Positions 4,519 to 28,053 of a DNA stretch of 64,000 nucleotides are shown in pieces. Source of the stretch: Sphingobacteriales bacterium (GTDB taxonomy: Bacteria > Bacteroidota > Bacteroidia > Sphingobacteriales > Sphingobacteriaceae); the NCBI GenBank assembly GCA_014763615.1, contig JACXVB010000005.1:20457-84456 (forward strand). The letters run 5' to 3'. Each line of letters starts with the position of its first letter. Within the stretch, counting starts at the first letter, position 1. A program made the translations under genes and the position numbers. Below the pieces are notes generated by a model, which was given only the letters and a program-made list of their open reading frames with translations, was not told where the DNA came from and ran no database searches.

Positions 4519-6060
4519 TTAATATTCTTGTTCTTCTGGTCTTAAATAAGCATCAAATCTACCTTCTTCTGCCAAATTTTCTAATTTTAAAACGCCACGT
4601 GGACAAACGGCAGCACACACGCCACAACCTACGCAAGAGGCTCTAATGATATTTTCTCCTTTTTGTGCATAAGCTCTCACATCTATTCCCATTTCACAAT
4701 AGGTGGAACAATTTCCGCAAGAAATACACTGGCCGCCATTTGTAGTAATTCTAAATCTTGATTTAAACCTTTGTACAATTCCTAAATAAGCCGCTAAAGG
4801 ACAACCAAATCTGCACCAAACTCTACTTCCCATGACTGGGTAAAAGCCAGTCCCGATGGCTCCAGCAAATATAAATCCGATTAAAAAGCCATAAGTTTCT
4901 CTCAATTTATAAGTATCTATAAAGCCTAAAAGTTGAGCAGCTCCAGTAAAAAAAGTATATAAAACGCCAGCAGTCATCACAATAGCAAATACCAAAATGC
5001 TGTGCACTATTACTCTTTCATATTTCCAGGCTTTGATAGATTTATCTGAAAGTTGACGAAACGGATCACCTAAAGTTTCTGCTAAACCTCCACAACCGCA
5101 AACCCAACTGCAATACCACCTTTTTCCAAAAAAATAAACCATTACAGGAACACCAACTACAAAAAGGAAGATTCCCCAGCCCAGCATCCAATAGCCCAAC
5201 ATTCCACTTGAAATCAGGTTATTGATGCGATAATCAAAAAAGAAACTATAATCTAATGGCCACATGTTTTTAAAATCCATGGAAGGCAATTGTAGTTTGG
5301 ATAGGATATTTGGAATGAGGAAAGCAAATGCAATTTGGAAAAACAAAACTGAGGTAGTTCTCACCAATTGATAATTGTTGTGGCGATATTTGATGTACAT
5401 TCTCACGCTCATCACCGTCATGACCAAACAATACAAGAAGCCATACATAAACCATTGCGATGCTTCGGAACCGCTTAATGTTTGACTCAAAGGATCCATT
5501 AGAATCACCCAATTGGCAATGTAAGCAGGAGCTTCATAAATGAAAATGTAGAATACAATGAGAGAAATAGAAAAGATGATGGCTACAATTCCTCTATTGG
5601 TGATCCCAGTTTTGAAAATACCATTGTTTTTAATGCCCGGAACAGGGTCTAAAAATAGTGCTGGAATCATGAACATCAATCCACCTAAAGCACTAAGAAT
5701 AAAGCAAATGAAAAACAAAAGGGTAGCATGATCTTTCACAAAACCTTCTAAACTATGTTTTACAATGGCTAATGAATAATCGGTATTGATCACCTTATCC
5801 CATTCTTGTTTTGCTTTAAACTTATTATTGACACTGTTTAAAGCCTGTTTATAATCTTGAATAAAGGCAGTTTTACTACTATAATCTTTGTTAAACATTA
5901 CACTCAAAGCAGGTCTTAGTTCGGCCTGATGAGTAGCATCTGTAATGGTGGTTTGAAATATTTGCTCGGTGAGTTTGTAACGACCAACACCCAATAAAGA
6001 GATGAACACTCCTAAACAAAAAAGAAAGATGGCTAAACCGAGTTTTCTGATGATTTTCAT
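4519..6060 (-). CDS. Polytopic membrane 4Fe-4S protein (NapH/RdxA/CcoG-like ferredoxin-type)
   Basis: Multiple TM helices; CSWVCGCG and CRFGCP motifs; two ferredoxin motifs CISCGNCSTYC and CVGCGVCAAVCP. Confidence 0.85.
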   Translation of the reverse strand: MKIIRKLGLAIFLFCLGVFISLLGVGRYKLTEQIFQTTITDATHQAELRPALSVMFNKDYSSKTAFIQDYKQALNSVNNKFKAKQEWDKVINTDYSLAIVKHSLEGFVKDHATLLFFICFILSALGGLMFMIPALFLDPVPGIKNNGIFKTGITNRGIVAIIFSISLIVFYIFIYEAPAYIANWVILMDPLSQTLSGSEASQWFMYGFLYCLVMTVMSVRMYIKYRHNNYQLVRTTSVLFFQIAFAFLIPNILSKLQLPSMDFKNMWPLDYSFFFDYRINNLISSGMLGYWMLGWGIFLFVVGVPVMVYFFGKRWYCSWVCGCGGLAETLGDPFRQLSDKSIKAWKYERVIVHSILVFAIVMTAGVLYTFFTGAAQLLGFIDTYKLRETYGFLIGFIFAGAIGTGFYPVMGSRVWCRFGCPLAAYLGIVQRFKSRFRITTNGGQCISCGNCSTYCEMGIDVRAYAQKGENIIRASCVGCGVCAAVCPRGVLKLENLAEEGRFDAYLRPEEQEY

Positions 6061-12987: not shown

Positions 12988-14478
12988 TTATTTTTTATGG
13001 AGATGTAATCTCGTGGGGTCGTGTAGAACTTGGTTGATATCCATAATTTGCTCATCAATATCATCTACACATTTTTTCATCTGCGGAATTACTTCATTAC
13101 TTTCTACTATATTTTGTTGTACCAACATTACTAAACCTTTTAAAGTAGCCACAGGTCCTCGTATTTGGTGAGAAAGATGGGAAGAGTATTCAGAAAGCTT
13201 TTGATTTTTGTAAATCAAATCTTTGGTTCTTTCGGTAATAATATCTTCTAATCGTTGGTTAATTTTATCCACATTGGCTTTTTGCCTCAAAACTTCCTCA
13301 TTTAAGGCAGAAAGCACTCTGTTGCTTTCTTTTGATTTTCTATTGTTTTTAATGAGAATTACAACCAAAATGATAGAAAGTAAAGTAACAATGCTACTGG
13401 CAATAAACAAAGTTTTGGTGTTACGCTGTTTGGCAATGGTCAGCTCGTTTTCTTTTTGAATTTGCTGTTGCTTTAGCGTTTCTTGTATCAAATTGATGTT
13501 TGAGGCGGTGTTTTTCTTATAATTAACACTATCTAAATCATGCACTTCTTTTAAATAATAAAGTGCTTTTTCATAATTTTTTCTTTTAGCTTCGAGTTCA
13601 TAGGATTCAAAAGTATAATCATACAATCTTTTTTCGTCATTGACCAATTTTGCAAAAGCAATACCTTCATTCAAAAATTCTTCTGCTTTTTTGAAATTTT
13701 TGTCAGAAATATAAATGGAAGTTAGGGTTAAATCAATGGAAGCCACACTGCTATTTAACTCGAATTCTTTTGCTTTTTGATTAGCTTGCAGAAGTAATTT
13801 TTTTGCTTCTTGAACCTTGTTCAAACTGAAAAAAATCACCCCTCTATTTTGTAGACTTTGAGTTATACCAATGGGGTTACCAATTTTATTAAAAATTGTA
13901 CTGCTCTTCTGATAATTTTCAAGGGCAACGGAATAATTTTTTTTTCTAAAATATGTGTTACCAATATTTAAATAGGAACCGGCCAACAAATCTTTGATGC
14001 CGTACTTTTCTGCTATTTTTAATGAATTTTTGTAATATGATAAGGCTTTATCATAGTCGATATCAAGCCATAAGTTTCCTATATTATTAGAAACTTTGGC
14101 TTCCCCCAATTTATCACCCAATTTTTTATATAAATTTAAAGAAATGAGATAACGATTTAAGGCTGTATCTCTCTGATTGAGATAATAATAGCCAATACCT
14201 TGAACTCGATTAGATTCTGCCATTCCACTTTTATAATGGATTAATGAAGCGATTTTCTCCGCTTTTTTGGCGGTATTGATGCTCTGTTCAGGATCCGTTA
14301 ATCTATTTTTATAAGCTTGCTCATTTAGTTCATCTACCGTGTTGGTGTCTTTTTTTAAGCCCAATAAGGAGTCATCTTGCTGAAACGCGTAAGAAGCCGC
14401 ATGCAAACCTAAGCAAAGTAAAAGCATTAAATAGTACCTCATGAATGGTGTTTTTGTCTGAAGAGTAAAGATATTCAT
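12988..14478 (-). CDS. Membrane TPR sensor with HisKA-like H-box and no HATPase domain (likely start ATG 14442)
   Basis: Signal peptide MRYYLMLLLCLGLHAASYA; TPR repeats about aa 50-320 (NNIGN, NIGNTY, NRGVIF); TM aa 357-376; coiled coil; SHQIRGP (H437); ends 59 aa later. Confidence 0.85.
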   Translation of the reverse strand: MNIFTLQTKTPFMRYYLMLLLCLGLHAASYAFQQDDSLLGLKKDTNTVDELNEQAYKNRLTDPEQSINTAKKAEKIASLIHYKSGMAESNRVQGIGYYYLNQRDTALNRYLISLNLYKKLGDKLGEAKVSNNIGNLWLDIDYDKALSYYKNSLKIAEKYGIKDLLAGSYLNIGNTYFRKKNYSVALENYQKSSTIFNKIGNPIGITQSLQNRGVIFFSLNKVQEAKKLLLQANQKAKEFELNSSVASIDLTLTSIYISDKNFKKAEEFLNEGIAFAKLVNDEKRLYDYTFESYELEAKRKNYEKALYYLKEVHDLDSVNYKKNTASNINLIQETLKQQQIQKENELTIAKQRNTKTLFIASSIVTLLSIILVVILIKNNRKSKESNRVLSALNEEVLRQKANVDKINQRLEDIITERTKDLIYKNQKLSEYSSHLSHQIRGPVATLKGLVMLVQQNIVESNEVIPQMKKCVDDIDEQIMDINQVLHDPTRLHLHKK

Positions 14479-14727
14479 AAAATCTTAAATAATTCATTCG
14501 TTAAGAAAAATAGAATTATTCTTTATTTAAATGATAAAAATTATTTAATTGTAAGATTACTTTATTTTTTTTAATATAAATATTTCGTTTAAAATAAATT
14601 AGCCCATAATTTAGCCTATATATTAACGTATTGGATACGAAATTTCATTATTAAAAGTTTCGTTTTTTTAAATTTTATTGCACACTTATTCACAAAATTT
14701 TAAAACCATCAAAATAAAAGTAAAGAC

Positions 14728-14865
14728 ATGAAAAAAATCATCATCGCATTATTAGTAGTATCTGCCCTAGGTGTCACTTCTTGCAAAAAAGACAATGGCA
14801 TTACTCCAGCTAAATCAACCGCAGTAAAAGTAAACGATAGAGGAGACTTAGGTACTTGGGATTAA
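14728..14865 (+). CDS. Small lipoprotein/peptide P1, 45 aa (not in ORF track): MKKIIIALLVVSALGVTSCKKDNGITPAKSTAVKVNDRGDLGTWD
   Basis: Translated by hand. MKK plus hydrophobic core, lipobox VTS-C19, CKKD; A-rich leader; paralog immediately downstream. Confidence 0.85.
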   Translation: MKKIIIALLVVSALGVTSCKKDNGITPAKSTAVKVNDRGDLGTWD

Positions 14866-14905
14866 TTAACAAGAGTTTAAAACCATCAAAACAAAAATCA
14901 AGAAT

Positions 14906-15043
14906 ATGAAAAAGATTATTATCGTATTATTAGTGGTATCCGCCCTTGGCGTAGCTTCTTGTAAAAAGGAAAATAGCATAGCTCCAGTTAAATCAACTGC
15001 AGTAAAAGTAAATGATAGAGGAGACTTAGGCACATGGGACTAA
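14906..15043 (+). CDS. Small lipoprotein/peptide P2, 45 aa (not in ORF track): MKKIIIVLLVVSALGVASCKKENSIAPVKSTAVKVNDRGDLGTWD
   Basis: Translated by hand. 39/45 aa identical to P1; lipobox VAS-C19; last 17 aa identical to P1. Confidence 0.85.
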   Translation: MKKIIIVLLVVSALGVASCKKENSIAPVKSTAVKVNDRGDLGTWD

Positions 15044-15075: not shown

Positions 15076-15231
15076 ATGAAAAAGTTATTAATCATTGTGT
15101 TTGTAGCTATTACAGCGGTAGCCGCAGCAACAACATTAAAAAAAGCAGACAAGGTAGAGGCAAAACCAACTACGATTCAACAACAGGTGGTAGATGCGCC
15201 AAGAAATGCGCAAGTAGCTACTTGGGATTAA
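15076..15231 (+). CDS. Small exported peptide P3, 51 aa: MKKLLIIVFVAITAVAAATTLKKADKVEAKPTTIQQQVVDAPRNAQVATWD
   Basis: The ORF track extends it to 15034, but ATG 15076 has the same leader and MKK start as P1/P2. Hydrophobic signal without Cys; ends VATWD. Confidence 0.8.
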   Translation: MKKLLIIVFVAITAVAAATTLKKADKVEAKPTTIQQQVVDAPRNAQVATWD

Positions 15232-15343: not shown

Positions 15344-16714
15344 ATGCAAGTCATTAAGAATTATGTGGAAGAGCATCGTCAAAGATTTTTAGACGAATTA
15401 TTTGAATTATTGAGATTTCCGTCGGTAAGTGCAGATCCTAAGTATAAGGGAGAGGTATTAAAAACTGCGGATTTTGTTGCCGATAAACTGAAAGCAGCCG
15501 GAGCCGAACACGTTGAAGTTTGTGCTACAGAAGGCTATCCCATTGTTTACGGAGAAAAAATGAAAGACCCTACCTTACCAACGGTGTTGGTATATGGTCA
15601 TTACGATGTGCAACCACCAGATCCGTTGGACTTGTGGCATACACCACCTTTTGAGCCTACTGTAAGAGACGGTAAAATATATGCTCGAGGTGCTTGTGAT
15701 GATAAGGGTCAATTTTACATGCATGTCAAAGCTTTTGAGCTGATGATGCGTACGGAAACACTTCCTTGCAATATCAAATTTATGATAGAAGGAGAGGAGG
15801 AAGTAGGTTCTGATAATTTGGGGAAGTTCGTTTCCCAAAATACAGAGAGATTAAAAGCCGATGTGGTTTTAATCTCTGATACTTCCATGTTGAGCATGGA
15901 AAATCCTTCCTTAGAAACAGGTTTACGAGGTTTGGCATACATGGAAGTGGAAGTTCAGGGACCGAACCGTGATTTACATTCTGGCGTTTATGGTGGTGCG
16001 GTGGCTAATCCGGCTACTATTCTTTGCCAAATGATTGCTTCTTTACACGATGAAAACAATCATATCACTATACCAAGTTTTTACGATGGAGTCATTGAAC
16101 TTTCTGCCGAAGAAAGGAAAGCCTTAAATGATGCTCCATTTGATTTGGAAGAATATAAAAATGACCTTTCTGTAGAAGAGGTTTGGGGAGAGAAAGGTTA
16201 TACCACTATAGAAAGAACTGGAATTCGTCCGACTTTAGAAGTCAACGGAATTTGGGGTGGATATACTGGTCCAGGTGCAAAAACAGTCCTTCCAGCCAAA
16301 GCCAATGCTAAAATTTCTATGAGATTGGTACCAGGTCAAGATTGGAAGAAAATTTCTGATCTTTTCAAAAAGCATATAGAAAGTATTGCACCTAAATCTG
16401 TAAAAGTGAAAGTAACCGCTCATCATGGAGGAACTCCTTATGTAACTCCAACGGATTCTATTGCTTTTCAGGCTGCCTTTAGAGCTATTGAAGAAGCTTT
16501 TGGCAAGCAACCAGTACCTACTAGAGGTGGTGGAAGTATCCCAATAGTTGCTTTGTTTGAGCAAGAGTTAGGCATTAAAACGGTATTAATGGGTTTTGGT
16601 TTAGATAGTGATAATCTACATTCTCCGAACGAGAAATATGATATTTTCAACTATTATAAAGGGATAGAAACCATTCCTTTATTTCATAAATATTTTGCTG
16701 AATTGAGCAAGTAA
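15344..16714 (+). CDS. M20-family dipeptidase (ArgE/DapE/CNDP-like)
   Basis: YGHYDVQP, RGACDDKG, EGEEE, HSPNE; upstream TATATTTG -7 element. Confidence 0.92.
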   Translation: MQVIKNYVEEHRQRFLDELFELLRFPSVSADPKYKGEVLKTADFVADKLKAAGAEHVEVCATEGYPIVYGEKMKDPTLPTVLVYGHYDVQPPDPLDLWHTPPFEPTVRDGKIYARGACDDKGQFYMHVKAFELMMRTETLPCNIKFMIEGEEEVGSDNLGKFVSQNTERLKADVVLISDTSMLSMENPSLETGLRGLAYMEVEVQGPNRDLHSGVYGGAVANPATILCQMIASLHDENNHITIPSFYDGVIELSAEERKALNDAPFDLEEYKNDLSVEEVWGEKGYTTIERTGIRPTLEVNGIWGGYTGPGAKTVLPAKANAKISMRLVPGQDWKKISDLFKKHIESIAPKSVKVKVTAHHGGTPYVTPTDSIAFQAAFRAIEEAFGKQPVPTRGGGSIPIVALFEQELGIKTVLMGFGLDSDNLHSPNEKYDIFNYYKGIETIPLFHKYFAELSK

Positions 16715-25608: not shown

Positions 25609-26100
25609 TTATTCTTTCCATTTGTCTTTTAAATCGCTTACAAACAAGCTCAGTTCTTTTATAAAAAGATCTAAATCTTCTGCTGATTTTTTCATAAAAC
25701 CAATTGATTCAAGCAATTCTTCTTTTGATTGTTGTTTTTCTATAATTTCTACAAGACCTAAAATATTAGCCACCGGTTGCCGTACTTTATGAGAGGTAAT
25801 AAAGGTCATTTTTTCTAAATCACGGATTCGATATTTTAGATAAGTTTCAGCCTTTTTTAATTCCTGATTAGCATATTCTAGTTCATCAGCTCGCTTTTCT
25901 TTCTCCCGATTTTGATAAGCTAGCTCTTGGTTTGCTATAGCCAATTCTGCAGCCCTTTTTTCTTTTTCTTGATTTTGAAAAATGAGCTCTTTATTAGCGA
26001 TAATTAACGCTGATGCTTTCTTTTTCTTTTCGTGATTTTGGAATGCGTATTCAGATGGGGTGAGAATGATGTTATTATTTTGAGGGGATGACTTCTCCAT
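25609..26100 (-). CDS. Soluble coiled-coil repeat protein with HisKA H-box and no HATPase domain
   Basis: Three 21-aa repeats (xxQNxEKEKRAxELxxANxEL) followed by TSHKVRQPVANILGL; ends about 50 aa after the His. ATG 26100 preferred over the 26130 start in the track. Confidence 0.75.
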   Translation of the reverse strand: MEKSSPQNNNIILTPSEYAFQNHEKKKKASALIIANKELIFQNQEKEKRAAELAIANQELAYQNREKEKRADELEYANQELKKAETYLKYRIRDLEKMTFITSHKVRQPVANILGLVEIIEKQQSKEELLESIGFMKKSAEDLDLFIKELSLFVSDLKDKWKE

Positions 26101-26214
26101 AGAATGATGGGATATAATTTTAAAAATCAAAACAAACTATATCTACCTCATGAAGTCATTTTCGAAGTCTGTACATAAATGTAGGACTAATTTCTAACTA
26201 TTTTGATTTTTTAA

Positions 26215-28053
26215 CTAGATATTTTTCCCCTTCATGGCCTGAGCAACAGCCTCATCCATTAATCTTTCTGCAAAAGGACGAGTGAAATCGTTTAATGCAT
26301 CTATGGCATTTAAAATAGCGTCTTTATCATCGCCACCCGCTTTAGTTTTTAAATCAGCAACTAACTCGAGTGTTTTAGAGGTTTCTTCTTCATTCAAGAA
26401 ACTTCCATTTTTTTGAATAAAACGTTCTGTGGTATAAATCATTTGCTCCGCCTCTGTTTTGGCTTCCACAATCATGCGCTGGGCAACATCATCTTTGGCA
26501 TGAGTGACGGCATCCAATAACATTTGTTCCACTTCTTCATCTTTTAAGCCATAAGTAGGTTTTACATCAATTTCTTGTTTTACGCCAGAACGTAATTCAA
26601 TAGCTTGAACGGTTAAAATTCCATCCGCGTTAAGCAAAAAGTTAATATCAACCTTAGGTAAACCAGCAGGCATCGCCGGAATTCCTTTCAGCGTAAATTC
26701 CGCTAGTTTTCTATTCTCTTTTACTAAATCTCTTTCTCCTTGATAAACAGCAATTTTCATGTTTACTTGTCCATCCACAGAAGTTGAATACTGGCGACCA
26801 GCTTTGGTGGGTACTTTAGAATTTCTAGGGATGATGGTATCCATTAAACCACCCATAGTTTCGATTCCTAAAGAAAGCGGCGTAACATCTAATAATAAAA
26901 TGTCTTTTCTATTTCCTGATAACACATCAGCTTGCAAAGCAGCTCCCAAAGCCACTACTTCATCAGGATTGATGGTATCATTTACCTCTTTTTTGAAGAA
27001 CTCAGCAACCCTTCTTTTTACTAAATCTGTACGGGTTGAGCCGCCCACCATAATCACTTCATCAATTTCTGAAACAGAAATTCCCGCATCATTGAGCGCA
27101 TTTTGACAAGCAATAATGGTTTCTTCTACTTTGTCGGTGATTAATTTCTCGAAAGTTTGTTTATCGATACTACAAAAGGTATCCTCAATTTTTTCATTAA
27201 AAAGGTTTTGATGGTTGAAAGCTTTCTTTGCTTTTTCTGCCATTAAGCGCAATTCTTGCATTGGAATTTCTCCCTTTAATTGGTTTTGAGTGATCCAATA
27301 ATCAACAATGGCTCTGTCAAAATCATCTCCACCTAAGAAAGTATTTCCATTGGTTGATAAAACCTCAAAAATTCCATTTTGGATTTTTAAGATAGAAACA
27401 TCAAAAGTTCCGCCACCTAAATCATAAACGGCAATGGTTTTTTCTTCCTCAGGGTTTAACCCGATACCATAAGCCAAAGAAGCAGCCGTAGGTTCATTAA
27501 CAATACGTAAAACATCTAAACCGGCTAATTTTCCAGCATCTCTAGTAGCCTGACGCTGAGAATCGTTGAAATAAGCCGGAACGGTAATTACTGCCCTAGA
27601 AACATTGGTTTTTAAAGCATGTGCCGCTCTGGCTTTGAGCTCTTTTAAGATGAGTGCAGATAAATCAATAGGAGTATAAAAAGCATCACCAACTTTGATT
27701 TTCACCAAACTTTCATCGTTGGCATCATCAATAATTTTATAAGAAAAGTAATCTTGATGTTTGGCAACATCCTGATAAGAACGACCTAATAATCTTTTTA
27801 CCGAAAAAATGGTGTTTTGAGGGTCGCTTACCAAAAAATCTTTGGCTTCATTTCCAACTAAAACTGCTCCATTTTGGTCGAAATGTACCACCGAAGGTAC
27901 TAATACGCCTTTTCCTGCATCGTTTATCACTTTAGCATCACCATCTGGGTTGATAAATGCCACCAAAGAGTTGGTAGTGCCTAAATCTATTCCAACAATA
28001 ATATCTTCTTTCTGTATAGAACCTGTTGTCAGGTTAATTGAAACTTTAGCCAT
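26215..28053 (-). CDS. hscA: Hsp70-family Fe-S assembly chaperone HscA
   Basis: [33 protein letters not shown]; 612 aa with HscA-like C-terminus; TACCTTTG promoter element upstream. Confidence 0.85.

Follow-up and report, generated by a model that had tools for sequence, protein, structure and literature searches.

The window, i.e., the whole 64,000-nucleotide stretch analyzed here (Sphingobacteriales bacterium, contig JACXVB010000005.1 of assembly GCA_014763615.1, positions 20,457 to 84,456), comes from a member of the Sphingobacteriaceae close to Pelobium and Pedobacter and contains an array of three short tandem genes, P1, P2, and P3, which diverges from a gene for a membrane protein with tetratricopeptide repeats (TPRs). 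An earlier note on this DNA had presented P1 and P2 as an isolated pair of lipoproteins and had overlooked both P3 and the TPR gene; the pair in fact belongs to a three-gene array coupled to the divergent TPR gene. The four genes are as follows:

14728..14865, + strand: P1, a 45-residue putative pro-peptide of type A, with the Cys19 codon at 14782-14784, a linker, and the core DLGTWD at 14845-14862, followed by the stop codon
14906..15043, + strand: P2, a 45-residue tandem paralog of P1, with the Cys19 codon at 14960-14962 and the core DLGTWD at 15023-15040
15076..15231, + strand: P3, a 51-residue third paralog of type B, with the conserved C-terminus APRNAQVATWD and the core (...QVATWD) at 15205-15228
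12988..14478, - strand: the divergent TPR membrane protein, 496 residues, with the likely start Met13 at 14442

The product of P1 is MKKIIIALLVVSALGVTSCKKDNGITPAKSTAVKVNDRGDLGTWD and that of P2 is MKKIIIVLLVVSALGVASCKKENSIAPVKSTAVKVNDRGDLGTWD; the duplicated unit measures 178 bases and includes the A-rich leader TTTAAAACCATCAAAA. The coordinates and translations given previously for both genes are exact, as is their identity of 39/45 residues. The six replacements do lie at positions 7, 17, 22, 24, 26, and 28, but they are not confined to the signal and the first nine mature residues as had been stated, since position 28 falls on the tenth mature residue. In the last 17 codons, the five synonymous changes already listed are present, with no replacement, and 11 more synonymous changes, uncounted until now, are found in codons 1-28. 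Over the whole gene, 16 synonymous and 6 replacement codon differences separate P1 from P2 (dS 0.85, dN 0.06, dN/dS 0.07; P=1.3e-6 against neutrality), an excess so far above chance that the reading frame must be regarded as selected. The dS of 0.85 indicates an old duplication, the tails of which have stayed identical only in amino-acid sequence. For the tail by itself, the synonymous-to-replacement ratio of 5:0 (P=5e-4) confirms the purifying selection claimed for the last 17 codons; however, the additional constraint relative to the rest of the gene is not significant (Fisher P=0.27). Both P1 and P2 are already called as genes in a large protein collection, on a 157,846-base contig, and relatives of P1 occupy the equivalent position at the related loci L001/L002, L087, L089, L009, and L103.

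P3, whose product is MKKLLIIVFVAITAVAAATTLKKADKVEAKPTTIQQQVVDAPRNAQVATWD, starts 32 bases downstream of P2 and ends, like P1 and P2, in TWD (ATWD). It contains a Sec signal of the signal peptidase I type, no Cys, and a near-neutral linker, and does not satisfy the sequence criteria for a lipoprotein. In comparisons with its orthologs (P0003-P0008, L087, L088, L002), the signal and the last 11 residues display 0-2 replacement vs 3-5 synonymous changes, and the middle 20 codons evolve near-neutrally, with, for example, 18.3 replacement vs 6.7 synonymous changes. A word-based homolog search with P2 as the query returned P1 and P2 alone, and looking up the contig by exact sequence gave no match. 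With P3 as the query, six homologs were retrieved, and their contigs repeat the layout of TPR gene, P1/P2-type genes, P3-type gene, and dipeptidase. The genes looked like orphans until the P3 homologs and the synteny scans brought in their relatives.

These relatives define a family of 182 distinct members at 82 loci. The single-core members are 43-60 residues long and are composed of an MKK... Sec or lipoprotein signal, a fast-evolving linker, and the tail D-K-K-D-L-G-[ST]-[AWG]-D, which is followed by the stop codon. Conservation across the 129 single-core members is confined to the last 6-9 residues (consensus DKKDLG[ST][AWG]D), and tail positions -6 to -9 are strongly conserved even though the search pattern did not impose them. 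The lipobox Cys is present in 57/129 of these members, mostly followed by KKE or KKD, and is absent from 72/129. Many Mucilaginibacter loci contain an added precursor in which the core recurs in tandem, from 3 to about 30 times; examples are TKKDIGQAD, repeated five times up to the stop codon (L096), PKRDLGSADFAR, repeated about 25 times, and DKNNTGSGDLNG, repeated 29 times; basic residues are located ahead of each core in these multi-core relatives. That the core repeats run right up to the stop codon is indicative of a released peptide with Asp at its end. The final gene of an array is usually non-lipidated, with a basic site just before the core, often AP[KR] or GPK, and P3 belongs to this ancient array-terminal subtype. 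P1, P2, and P3 are best explained as members of one family of exported pro-peptides, each with a Sec-type signal, a disposable linker, and, at the C-terminus, a short core bearing a free Asp carboxylate.

Some members depart from this plan. A short extension past the Asp is found in a few members (L060, L108, L145, L168). In a Pelobium metagenome-assembled genome (L008, 4778-4930), a lone lipoprotein-type member ends in ...TDARAWE and is the only family-like gene seen without the terminal Asp. At Daejeonella-like loci, the first array gene encodes a lipoprotein of about 66-81 residues with an internal KGILC(R/K)GCGDWD, which includes two Cys, and a Thr/Ser-rich tail; this variant places the WD motif within a possible disulfide loop. 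Its occurrences are:

L026, 4320-4565: Daejeonella-type variant
L041, 4455-4697: Daejeonella-type variant
L130, 1577-1777, - strand: Daejeonella-type variant
L143, 2295-2534, - strand: Daejeonella-type variant
L164, 3030-3275, - strand: Daejeonella-type variant

Additionally, several public assemblies have scaffold-gap N runs inside the arrays or the multi-core genes (L001 5769-5867, L037, L048, L055, L062), so that copy numbers are underestimated and some genes are broken by the assembly.

No Pfam or NCBIfam model matches P1-P3 or the single-core and multi-core relatives that were scanned. Sub-threshold NCBIfam matches (PG1828, AimP, the Phr N-terminus, MNIO RiPP, LptM, and others) were rejected as family assignments, as they cover the signal peptide alone. 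For the PG1828 lipoprotein model (NF050142), model positions 1-37 are aligned with the lipoprotein signal and the start of the mature protein (SCKK[DE]); however, the scores of P1, P2, and P3 are 26.0, 29.6, and 17.5 bits against a cut-off of 50, the alignments span only positions 1-37 or 1-44 of the 59-position model, and no relationship exists between the C-terminal halves. When 1.84 billion representative proteins were searched exhaustively with a profile, 17 matches were obtained, comprising 16 WD-type relatives and one spurious match. In the literature, no description was found of the locus, of the core sequences, or of systems in Bacteroidota that couple TPR sensors with peptides; the locus type, which is widespread in Sphingobacteriaceae, is apparently undescribed and looks like a new system of soil Bacteroidota.

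The precursors may also be viewed as ribosomally synthesized and post-translationally modified peptides (RiPPs) or bacteriocin-like molecules, in which case enzymes from other loci would modify the core, and the TPR protein would have a regulatory or immunity role. RiPP precursors are typified by a short conserved core at the C-terminus, by several cores per precursor, and by an arrangement in gene arrays, all of which are seen here, and a weak match to the chryseobasin-related MNIO RiPP model (NF050125) was recorded at 14.5 bits vs a cut-off of 40. This match, however, is limited to the signal region and lies far below the cut-off, and at the N-termini there are no leader peptides but ordinary signals of the Sec or lipoprotein kind. 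The conserved neighborhood consists of the TPR protein, a UvrD helicase, and an M20 dipeptidase, joined in Mucilaginibacter by a small XRE protein; no modifying enzyme, transporter, or protease is conserved there. A RiPP function is accordingly considered quite unlikely.

The association of the array with the TPR gene was assessed at ~160 related loci, comprising 80 species genomes anchored on the dipeptidase and 80 metagenome loci anchored on an alignment of the TPR protein. The TPR gene is almost always accompanied by 1-9 divergently oriented peptide genes; the array is located 250-285 bases away from it. The dipeptidase-anchored scan revealed the TPR gene next door in 17 genomes, with signal-peptide open reading frames (ORFs) between the two in 16/17 when judged by eye and in 12/17 under a strict pattern; the array is present in 0/54 genomes that have enough flank but no TPR gene at the locus. 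Across these 71 species genomes, the association between array and TPR gene is significant with either count (P = 5e-10 for the strict pattern, 5e-15 by eye), and the strict pattern has no matches elsewhere in the dipeptidase-anchored loci. Among the TPR-anchored metagenome loci, the array was detected in 55/57 of those with at least 1 kb upstream; in one of the two exceptions an array gene extends past the end of the contig, and in the other a variant lipoprotein is encoded, with the motif CRGCADWD in its interior. Cultured carriers of the locus include Pedobacter psychrophilus CCM 8644, Rubrolithibacter danxiaensis, Mucilaginibacter oryzae DSM 19975, and M. frigoritolerans. That the genes are real, belong to one family, and are linked to the TPR gene is regarded as practically certain.

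The M20 dipeptidase was considered as a functional partner and rejected. It occurs without peptide genes in 54 genomes and has its own promoter box, described below, and at L154 and L161 the TPR gene and the array are kept and the next gene is not the dipeptidase. As the pair exists without the dipeptidase, and the dipeptidase without the array, the conserved unit is the TPR gene with its array, and the dipeptidase is a bystander.

Lipoproteins that are substrates of Lgt and LspA are recognized by a basic n-region, an uncharged hydrophobic core, and a lipobox, [LVI..][ASTVI][GAS]-C, with the Cys at 15-35. These sequence criteria are satisfied by P1 (K2 K3, ..SALGVTS-C19) and P2 (..SALGVAS-C19), and a check by hand upheld the lipobox reported for both (GVTS-C and GVAS-C, Cys19) under the usual lipoprotein signal rule; lipidation at Cys19 is thus predicted for the two proteins. 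The lipoprotein export signal (LES) for the cell surface consists of K-(D/E)2 or Q-A-(D/E)2 just after Cys+1, with a negative net charge (PMC5080379). It is not strictly matched by P1 (C-K-K-D-N) or P2 (C-K-K-E-N), in which one acidic residue follows two Lys, and surface exposure is therefore not predictable for them. Some relatives approach the LES more closely (CKKESE, CKKEEE).

The earlier note had interpreted P1 and P2 as two stand-alone surface lipopeptides, in which a functional tail of 17 residues is presented on a lipid anchor and the neighboring genes are irrelevant. Part of its premise stands, in that these are real selected coding genes with a C-terminal function, as attested by the dN/dS of 0.07, by intact relatives at the same position across many genera, and by RNA contigs of homologs. 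The start of the mature proteins, a lipobox with CKK[DE], resembles that of Bacteroidota surface lipoproteins, and the tails of P1 and P2 are identical. However, the 17-residue unit did not survive comparison with L089, a strain separated from the window organism by a P3 dS of just 0.06, which yet has the P1/P2-type tails KSATVKVSDKRDLGVWD and KAATVKVNDKGNLSTWD. Seven replacements fall within those 17 codons, so the tail as a whole is not the constrained unit, and constraint is restricted to ..L.(T/V)WD. The lipid anchor likewise fails as a defining feature, since the lipobox Cys is lacking in P3 and in the above-mentioned 72/129 single-core relatives, many relatives are soluble precursors with multiple copies, and the same core recurs in non-lipidated paralogs. 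Together with the imperfect LES and the near-obligate linkage to the TPR gene, these findings make stand-alone lipopeptides improbable.

The TPR protein is organized as follows:

about 13519-14343 including the stalk, - strand: seven periplasmic TPRs (residues 46-298), preceded by a signal peptide
13342-13410, - strand: transmembrane (TM) helix (residues 357-379), followed by a coiled coil
13024-13206, - strand: HisKA-like DHp hairpin (residues 425-485), with the H-box SHLSHQIRGP and the His437 codon at 13168-13170

The longest ORF begins 12 codons ahead of the start common to all orthologs (MRYY...), the extra part being 14442-14478 on the - strand, and the true start is probably Met13 at 14442. 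The TPR domain is assigned to the periplasm because it is placed between the signal peptide and the TM helix. Pfam identified TPR_12 (1.8e-22) and HisKA, the latter at 21.9 bits, below the cut-off of 26.9. The AlphaFold2 model (pLDDT 85) consists of a signal helix, seven TPRs, and a long helix that runs through the TM segment into the DHp hairpin. The H-box SHLSHQIRGP with His437 is invariant across 39 sequences, and the only sequence matches in the PDB are DHp domains of histidine kinases, aligned on the H-box with E values of 0.07-0.9. No HATPase_c match was obtained for the window protein, for 19 orthologs, or for the 120 best database hits. The window protein ends 11 residues past the second DHp helix, and all 19 orthologs, of 476-496 residues, end after the DHp. 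The nearest solved folds to the TPR domain are LGN/Pins, the Rap receptors with their pheromones, and the C-degron receptor APPBP2, all of which are peptide-binding TPRs.

FimS of Porphyromonas gingivalis likewise has a periplasmic TPR domain, the ligand of which is unknown (PMC11053733). The two proteins share an N-terminal signal or TM helix, a periplasmic TPR domain of ~300 residues, and a further TM helix, which is followed by HisKA in FimS and by the HisKA-like hairpin in the window protein; the NCBIfam model aligns with residues 18-394 of the window protein. On the other hand, the window protein scores 66 bits against the FimS model (NF053520), the cut-off of which is 600, and it has neither HATPase_c nor an adjacent response regulator.

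A search of the window for a signaling partner revealed no XRE homolog and no further peptide-family members, just one other, unrelated ORF with HisKA only. In contrast to the WD-type lineages, including the window, 57 mostly Mucilaginibacter loci have the TPR gene followed by a conserved XRE-type helix-turn-helix (HTH) protein of 122-126 residues with a C-terminal coiled coil and by an ORF of 95-107 residues (e.g., L140 about 5380-5760, - strand; L096, L113, L122, L154). This XRE protein is a candidate output partner of the TPR sensor in Mucilaginibacter.

The second HisKA-only protein of the window (25609-26130, - strand, 173 residues) contains coiled-coil repeats of the form ANxELxFQNxEKEKRAxEL and the H-box SHKVRQP and has no ATPase domain. 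Its gene lies directly 3' of an Hsp70-family gene (26215-28053, - strand), and its similarity to the cytoplasmic part of the TPR protein is weak, with 32% identity over 87 residues.

The cores are alike within a genome and diverge between genomes. Among same-genome paralogs with linkers less than 30% identical, 76% of the last six residues are alike, as compared with 45% for pairs from different genomes. The cores in the window differ at synonymous sites (ggt/ggc, act/aca, gat/gac), which points to selection, not gene conversion, as the force that keeps them alike. Core divergence tracks that of the periplasmic TPR domain when the cytoplasmic domain is controlled (partial Mantel r=0.30, P=0.0005; reverse r=-0.02), although these tests and the pair counts are inflated by shared ancestry. 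The periplasmic domain has diverged twice as fast as the cytoplasmic domain (mean distance 0.50 vs 0.26).

Very improbable, in view of this matching, is a function as acidic, Gly/Asp-rich periplasmic peptides or repeats with a cation-binding or structural role, next to which the TPR gene would be a mere syntenic neighbor. Repeat units such as DKNNTGSGDLNG and DKKDLGNGD are indeed Asp/Gly-rich and loosely resemble calcium-binding repeats. Nevertheless, they are outside the RTX and EF-hand consensus and, as aforementioned, match no Pfam or NCBIfam model, the window's own WD-type cores show no marked acidity, and both the exact Asp ends of the single-core peptides and the genome-specific matching of cores would be left unexplained.

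Relatives of P1-P3 are transcribed. In a 23-Mb metatranscriptome, contigs from two homologous Mucilaginibacter loci lie on the peptide genes only, with none on the TPR or dipeptidase genes (L140, 2304-2473, 100% identity; L133, 2640-2906, 98% identity), which suggests that family members are strongly transcribed, with the caveat that metatranscriptome contigs can include DNA. For L129, no RNA run was found.

We propose, with a slight preference over the other possibilities taken together, that P1, P2, and P3 are pro-peptides that serve as ligands of the TPR sensor encoded next to them. They would be exported, P1 and P2 being tethered by a lipid at Cys19 and P3 being soluble, and might be trimmed after the basic residues ahead of the core. 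The Asp-ending tail would then occupy the groove on the concave face of the periplasmic TPR domain, and its binding would alter signaling by the DHp hairpin to a partner, which may be a kinase, a response regulator, or a transcription factor. The multi-core precursors of relatives would supply many copies of one ligand. Two options are conceivable for the information conveyed, namely a pheromone-like signal between cells or a report on the state of the cell's own envelope.

Several points weigh against this proposal, in addition to the shared ancestry and the possible DNA contamination noted above. Export, lipidation, processing, binding, and signaling are all inferred. Peptides of this size do not freely cross the Gram-negative outer membrane, which disfavors a simple cell-to-cell pheromone. 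The resemblance to Rap and LGN is one that TPR superhelices of 7-8 repeats have in general. The fast change of P1/P2-type tails between close strains fits coevolution but also fits a weak constraint beyond the last few residues. The TPR protein has no ATPase domain, and no signaling partner was found within the window. Finally, the window DNA occurs in one public run only, a hot-spring metagenome (DNA), and no RNA was found for the window organism.

The envelope may also be reported in another manner, in which P1 and P2, as lipid-anchored proteins, are transported to the outer membrane and their tails touch the TPR sensor in the inner membrane only when lipoprotein trafficking or envelope spacing is disturbed. 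Such a reporter would act in the manner of NlpE-CpxA or RcsF-IgaA of E. coli. This mechanism is consistent with the good lipobox and the 26-residue tether of P1 and P2, with the occurrence of lipoproteins among the single-core relatives (57/129), and with the periplasmic location of the sensor domain, and it makes passage across the outer membrane unnecessary. It is nonetheless judged unlikely, for most members of the family, including P3 and all multi-core precursors, are not lipoproteins, the multi-copy precursors and genome-specific cores are better suited to a diffusible ligand, and no homology to NlpE or RcsF is present.

The proposed ligand-sensor pair invites comparison with the RRNPP(A) systems of Bacillota (Rap-Phr, PlcR-PapR, AimR-AimP). 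In RRNPP pro-peptides, the active part consists of the last few C-terminal residues (PMC10075063), and some of them have tandemly duplicated pheromone cores (PMC11343458). The window locus is similar in that a small pro-peptide gene with a basic-hydrophobic N-terminal signal adjoins a TPR receptor gene; further parallels are the presumably active C-terminal part, the repeated cores, the diversification of cores between lineages, and the Rap-like TPR fold. Conservation confined to the last 6-11 residues would be consistent with the release of a C-terminal pheromone. The receptors of Bacillota, however, are intracellular and fused to HTH or phosphatase domains, unlike the periplasmic TPR domain found here on a membrane protein with a DHp output; given this periplasmic location, re-import of the peptide, as in RRNPP, would not be needed. 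The present system also differs in belonging to Gram-negative Bacteroidota and in its arrays of up to 9 genes, its precursors with up to about 30 cores, its lipoprotein members, and its terminal Asp. On this comparison, the system is analogous to RRNPP and not a member of it, there being no sequence-level membership.

The precursors of yeast alpha-factor and similar eukaryotic pheromones and hormones consist of a signal peptide followed by many tandem copies of a short peptide with short spacers. The multi-core relatives resemble them in their tandem cores and in the basic residues before the cores; they differ in being bacterial and without homology to them, and the window itself has single-core genes only. 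Within Bacteroidota, PorA, a small exported protein made by P. gingivalis itself, is reported to be the ligand of a sensor kinase, in the PorXY two-component system (PMC12152298). The proteins, the secretion route (the type IX secretion system), and the sensor domain of PorA-PorXY are all unrelated to those described here.

Peptide signaling through TPR receptors is regarded as a hallmark of Bacillota, and to our knowledge almost no peptide signals are known in Gram-negative bacteria, especially in Bacteroidota. It is put forward only tentatively that the locus represents the first peptide-pheromone system of Bacteroidota, in which the arrays would release short Asp-ending peptides that a periplasmic TPR receptor reads directly, with a DHp-only output and with the cores acting as coevolving "pherotypes". 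If true, this would provide a testable class of ligands for a whole group of orphan TPR sensors, FimS being one relative. The peptide genes are largely missing from protein databases and the arrays often fall in assembly gaps, so this biology has been hidden by the practice of annotation and assembly.

The remaining features in the surroundings of the array are listed below:

14479..14727, no strand: AT-rich intergenic region that separates P1 from the divergent TPR gene, aligned with L001
15320-15327, + strand: Bacteroidetes-type -7 box TATATTTG, 17 bases ahead of the start codon of the dipeptidase
15344-16714: M20 dipeptidase, downstream of P3

The intergenic region presumably holds the promoters of both the TPR gene and P1. 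A canonical TAnnTTTG box was sought in 14479-14727 and not found, a scan for sigma-70 promoters and terminators gave hits at chance level, and the predicted fold of the region downstream of P3 did not differ from that of shuffled sequences. An AT-rich block, TTTTTTTTAATATAAATATTTC.TTTAAAATAAAT, at about 14552-14600 is common to the window and L001 (about 5392-5440) and is not evident in L009; this block may be a regulatory site. The -7 box ahead of the dipeptidase is conserved in L001 and suggests that the dipeptidase is transcribed apart from the peptide array.

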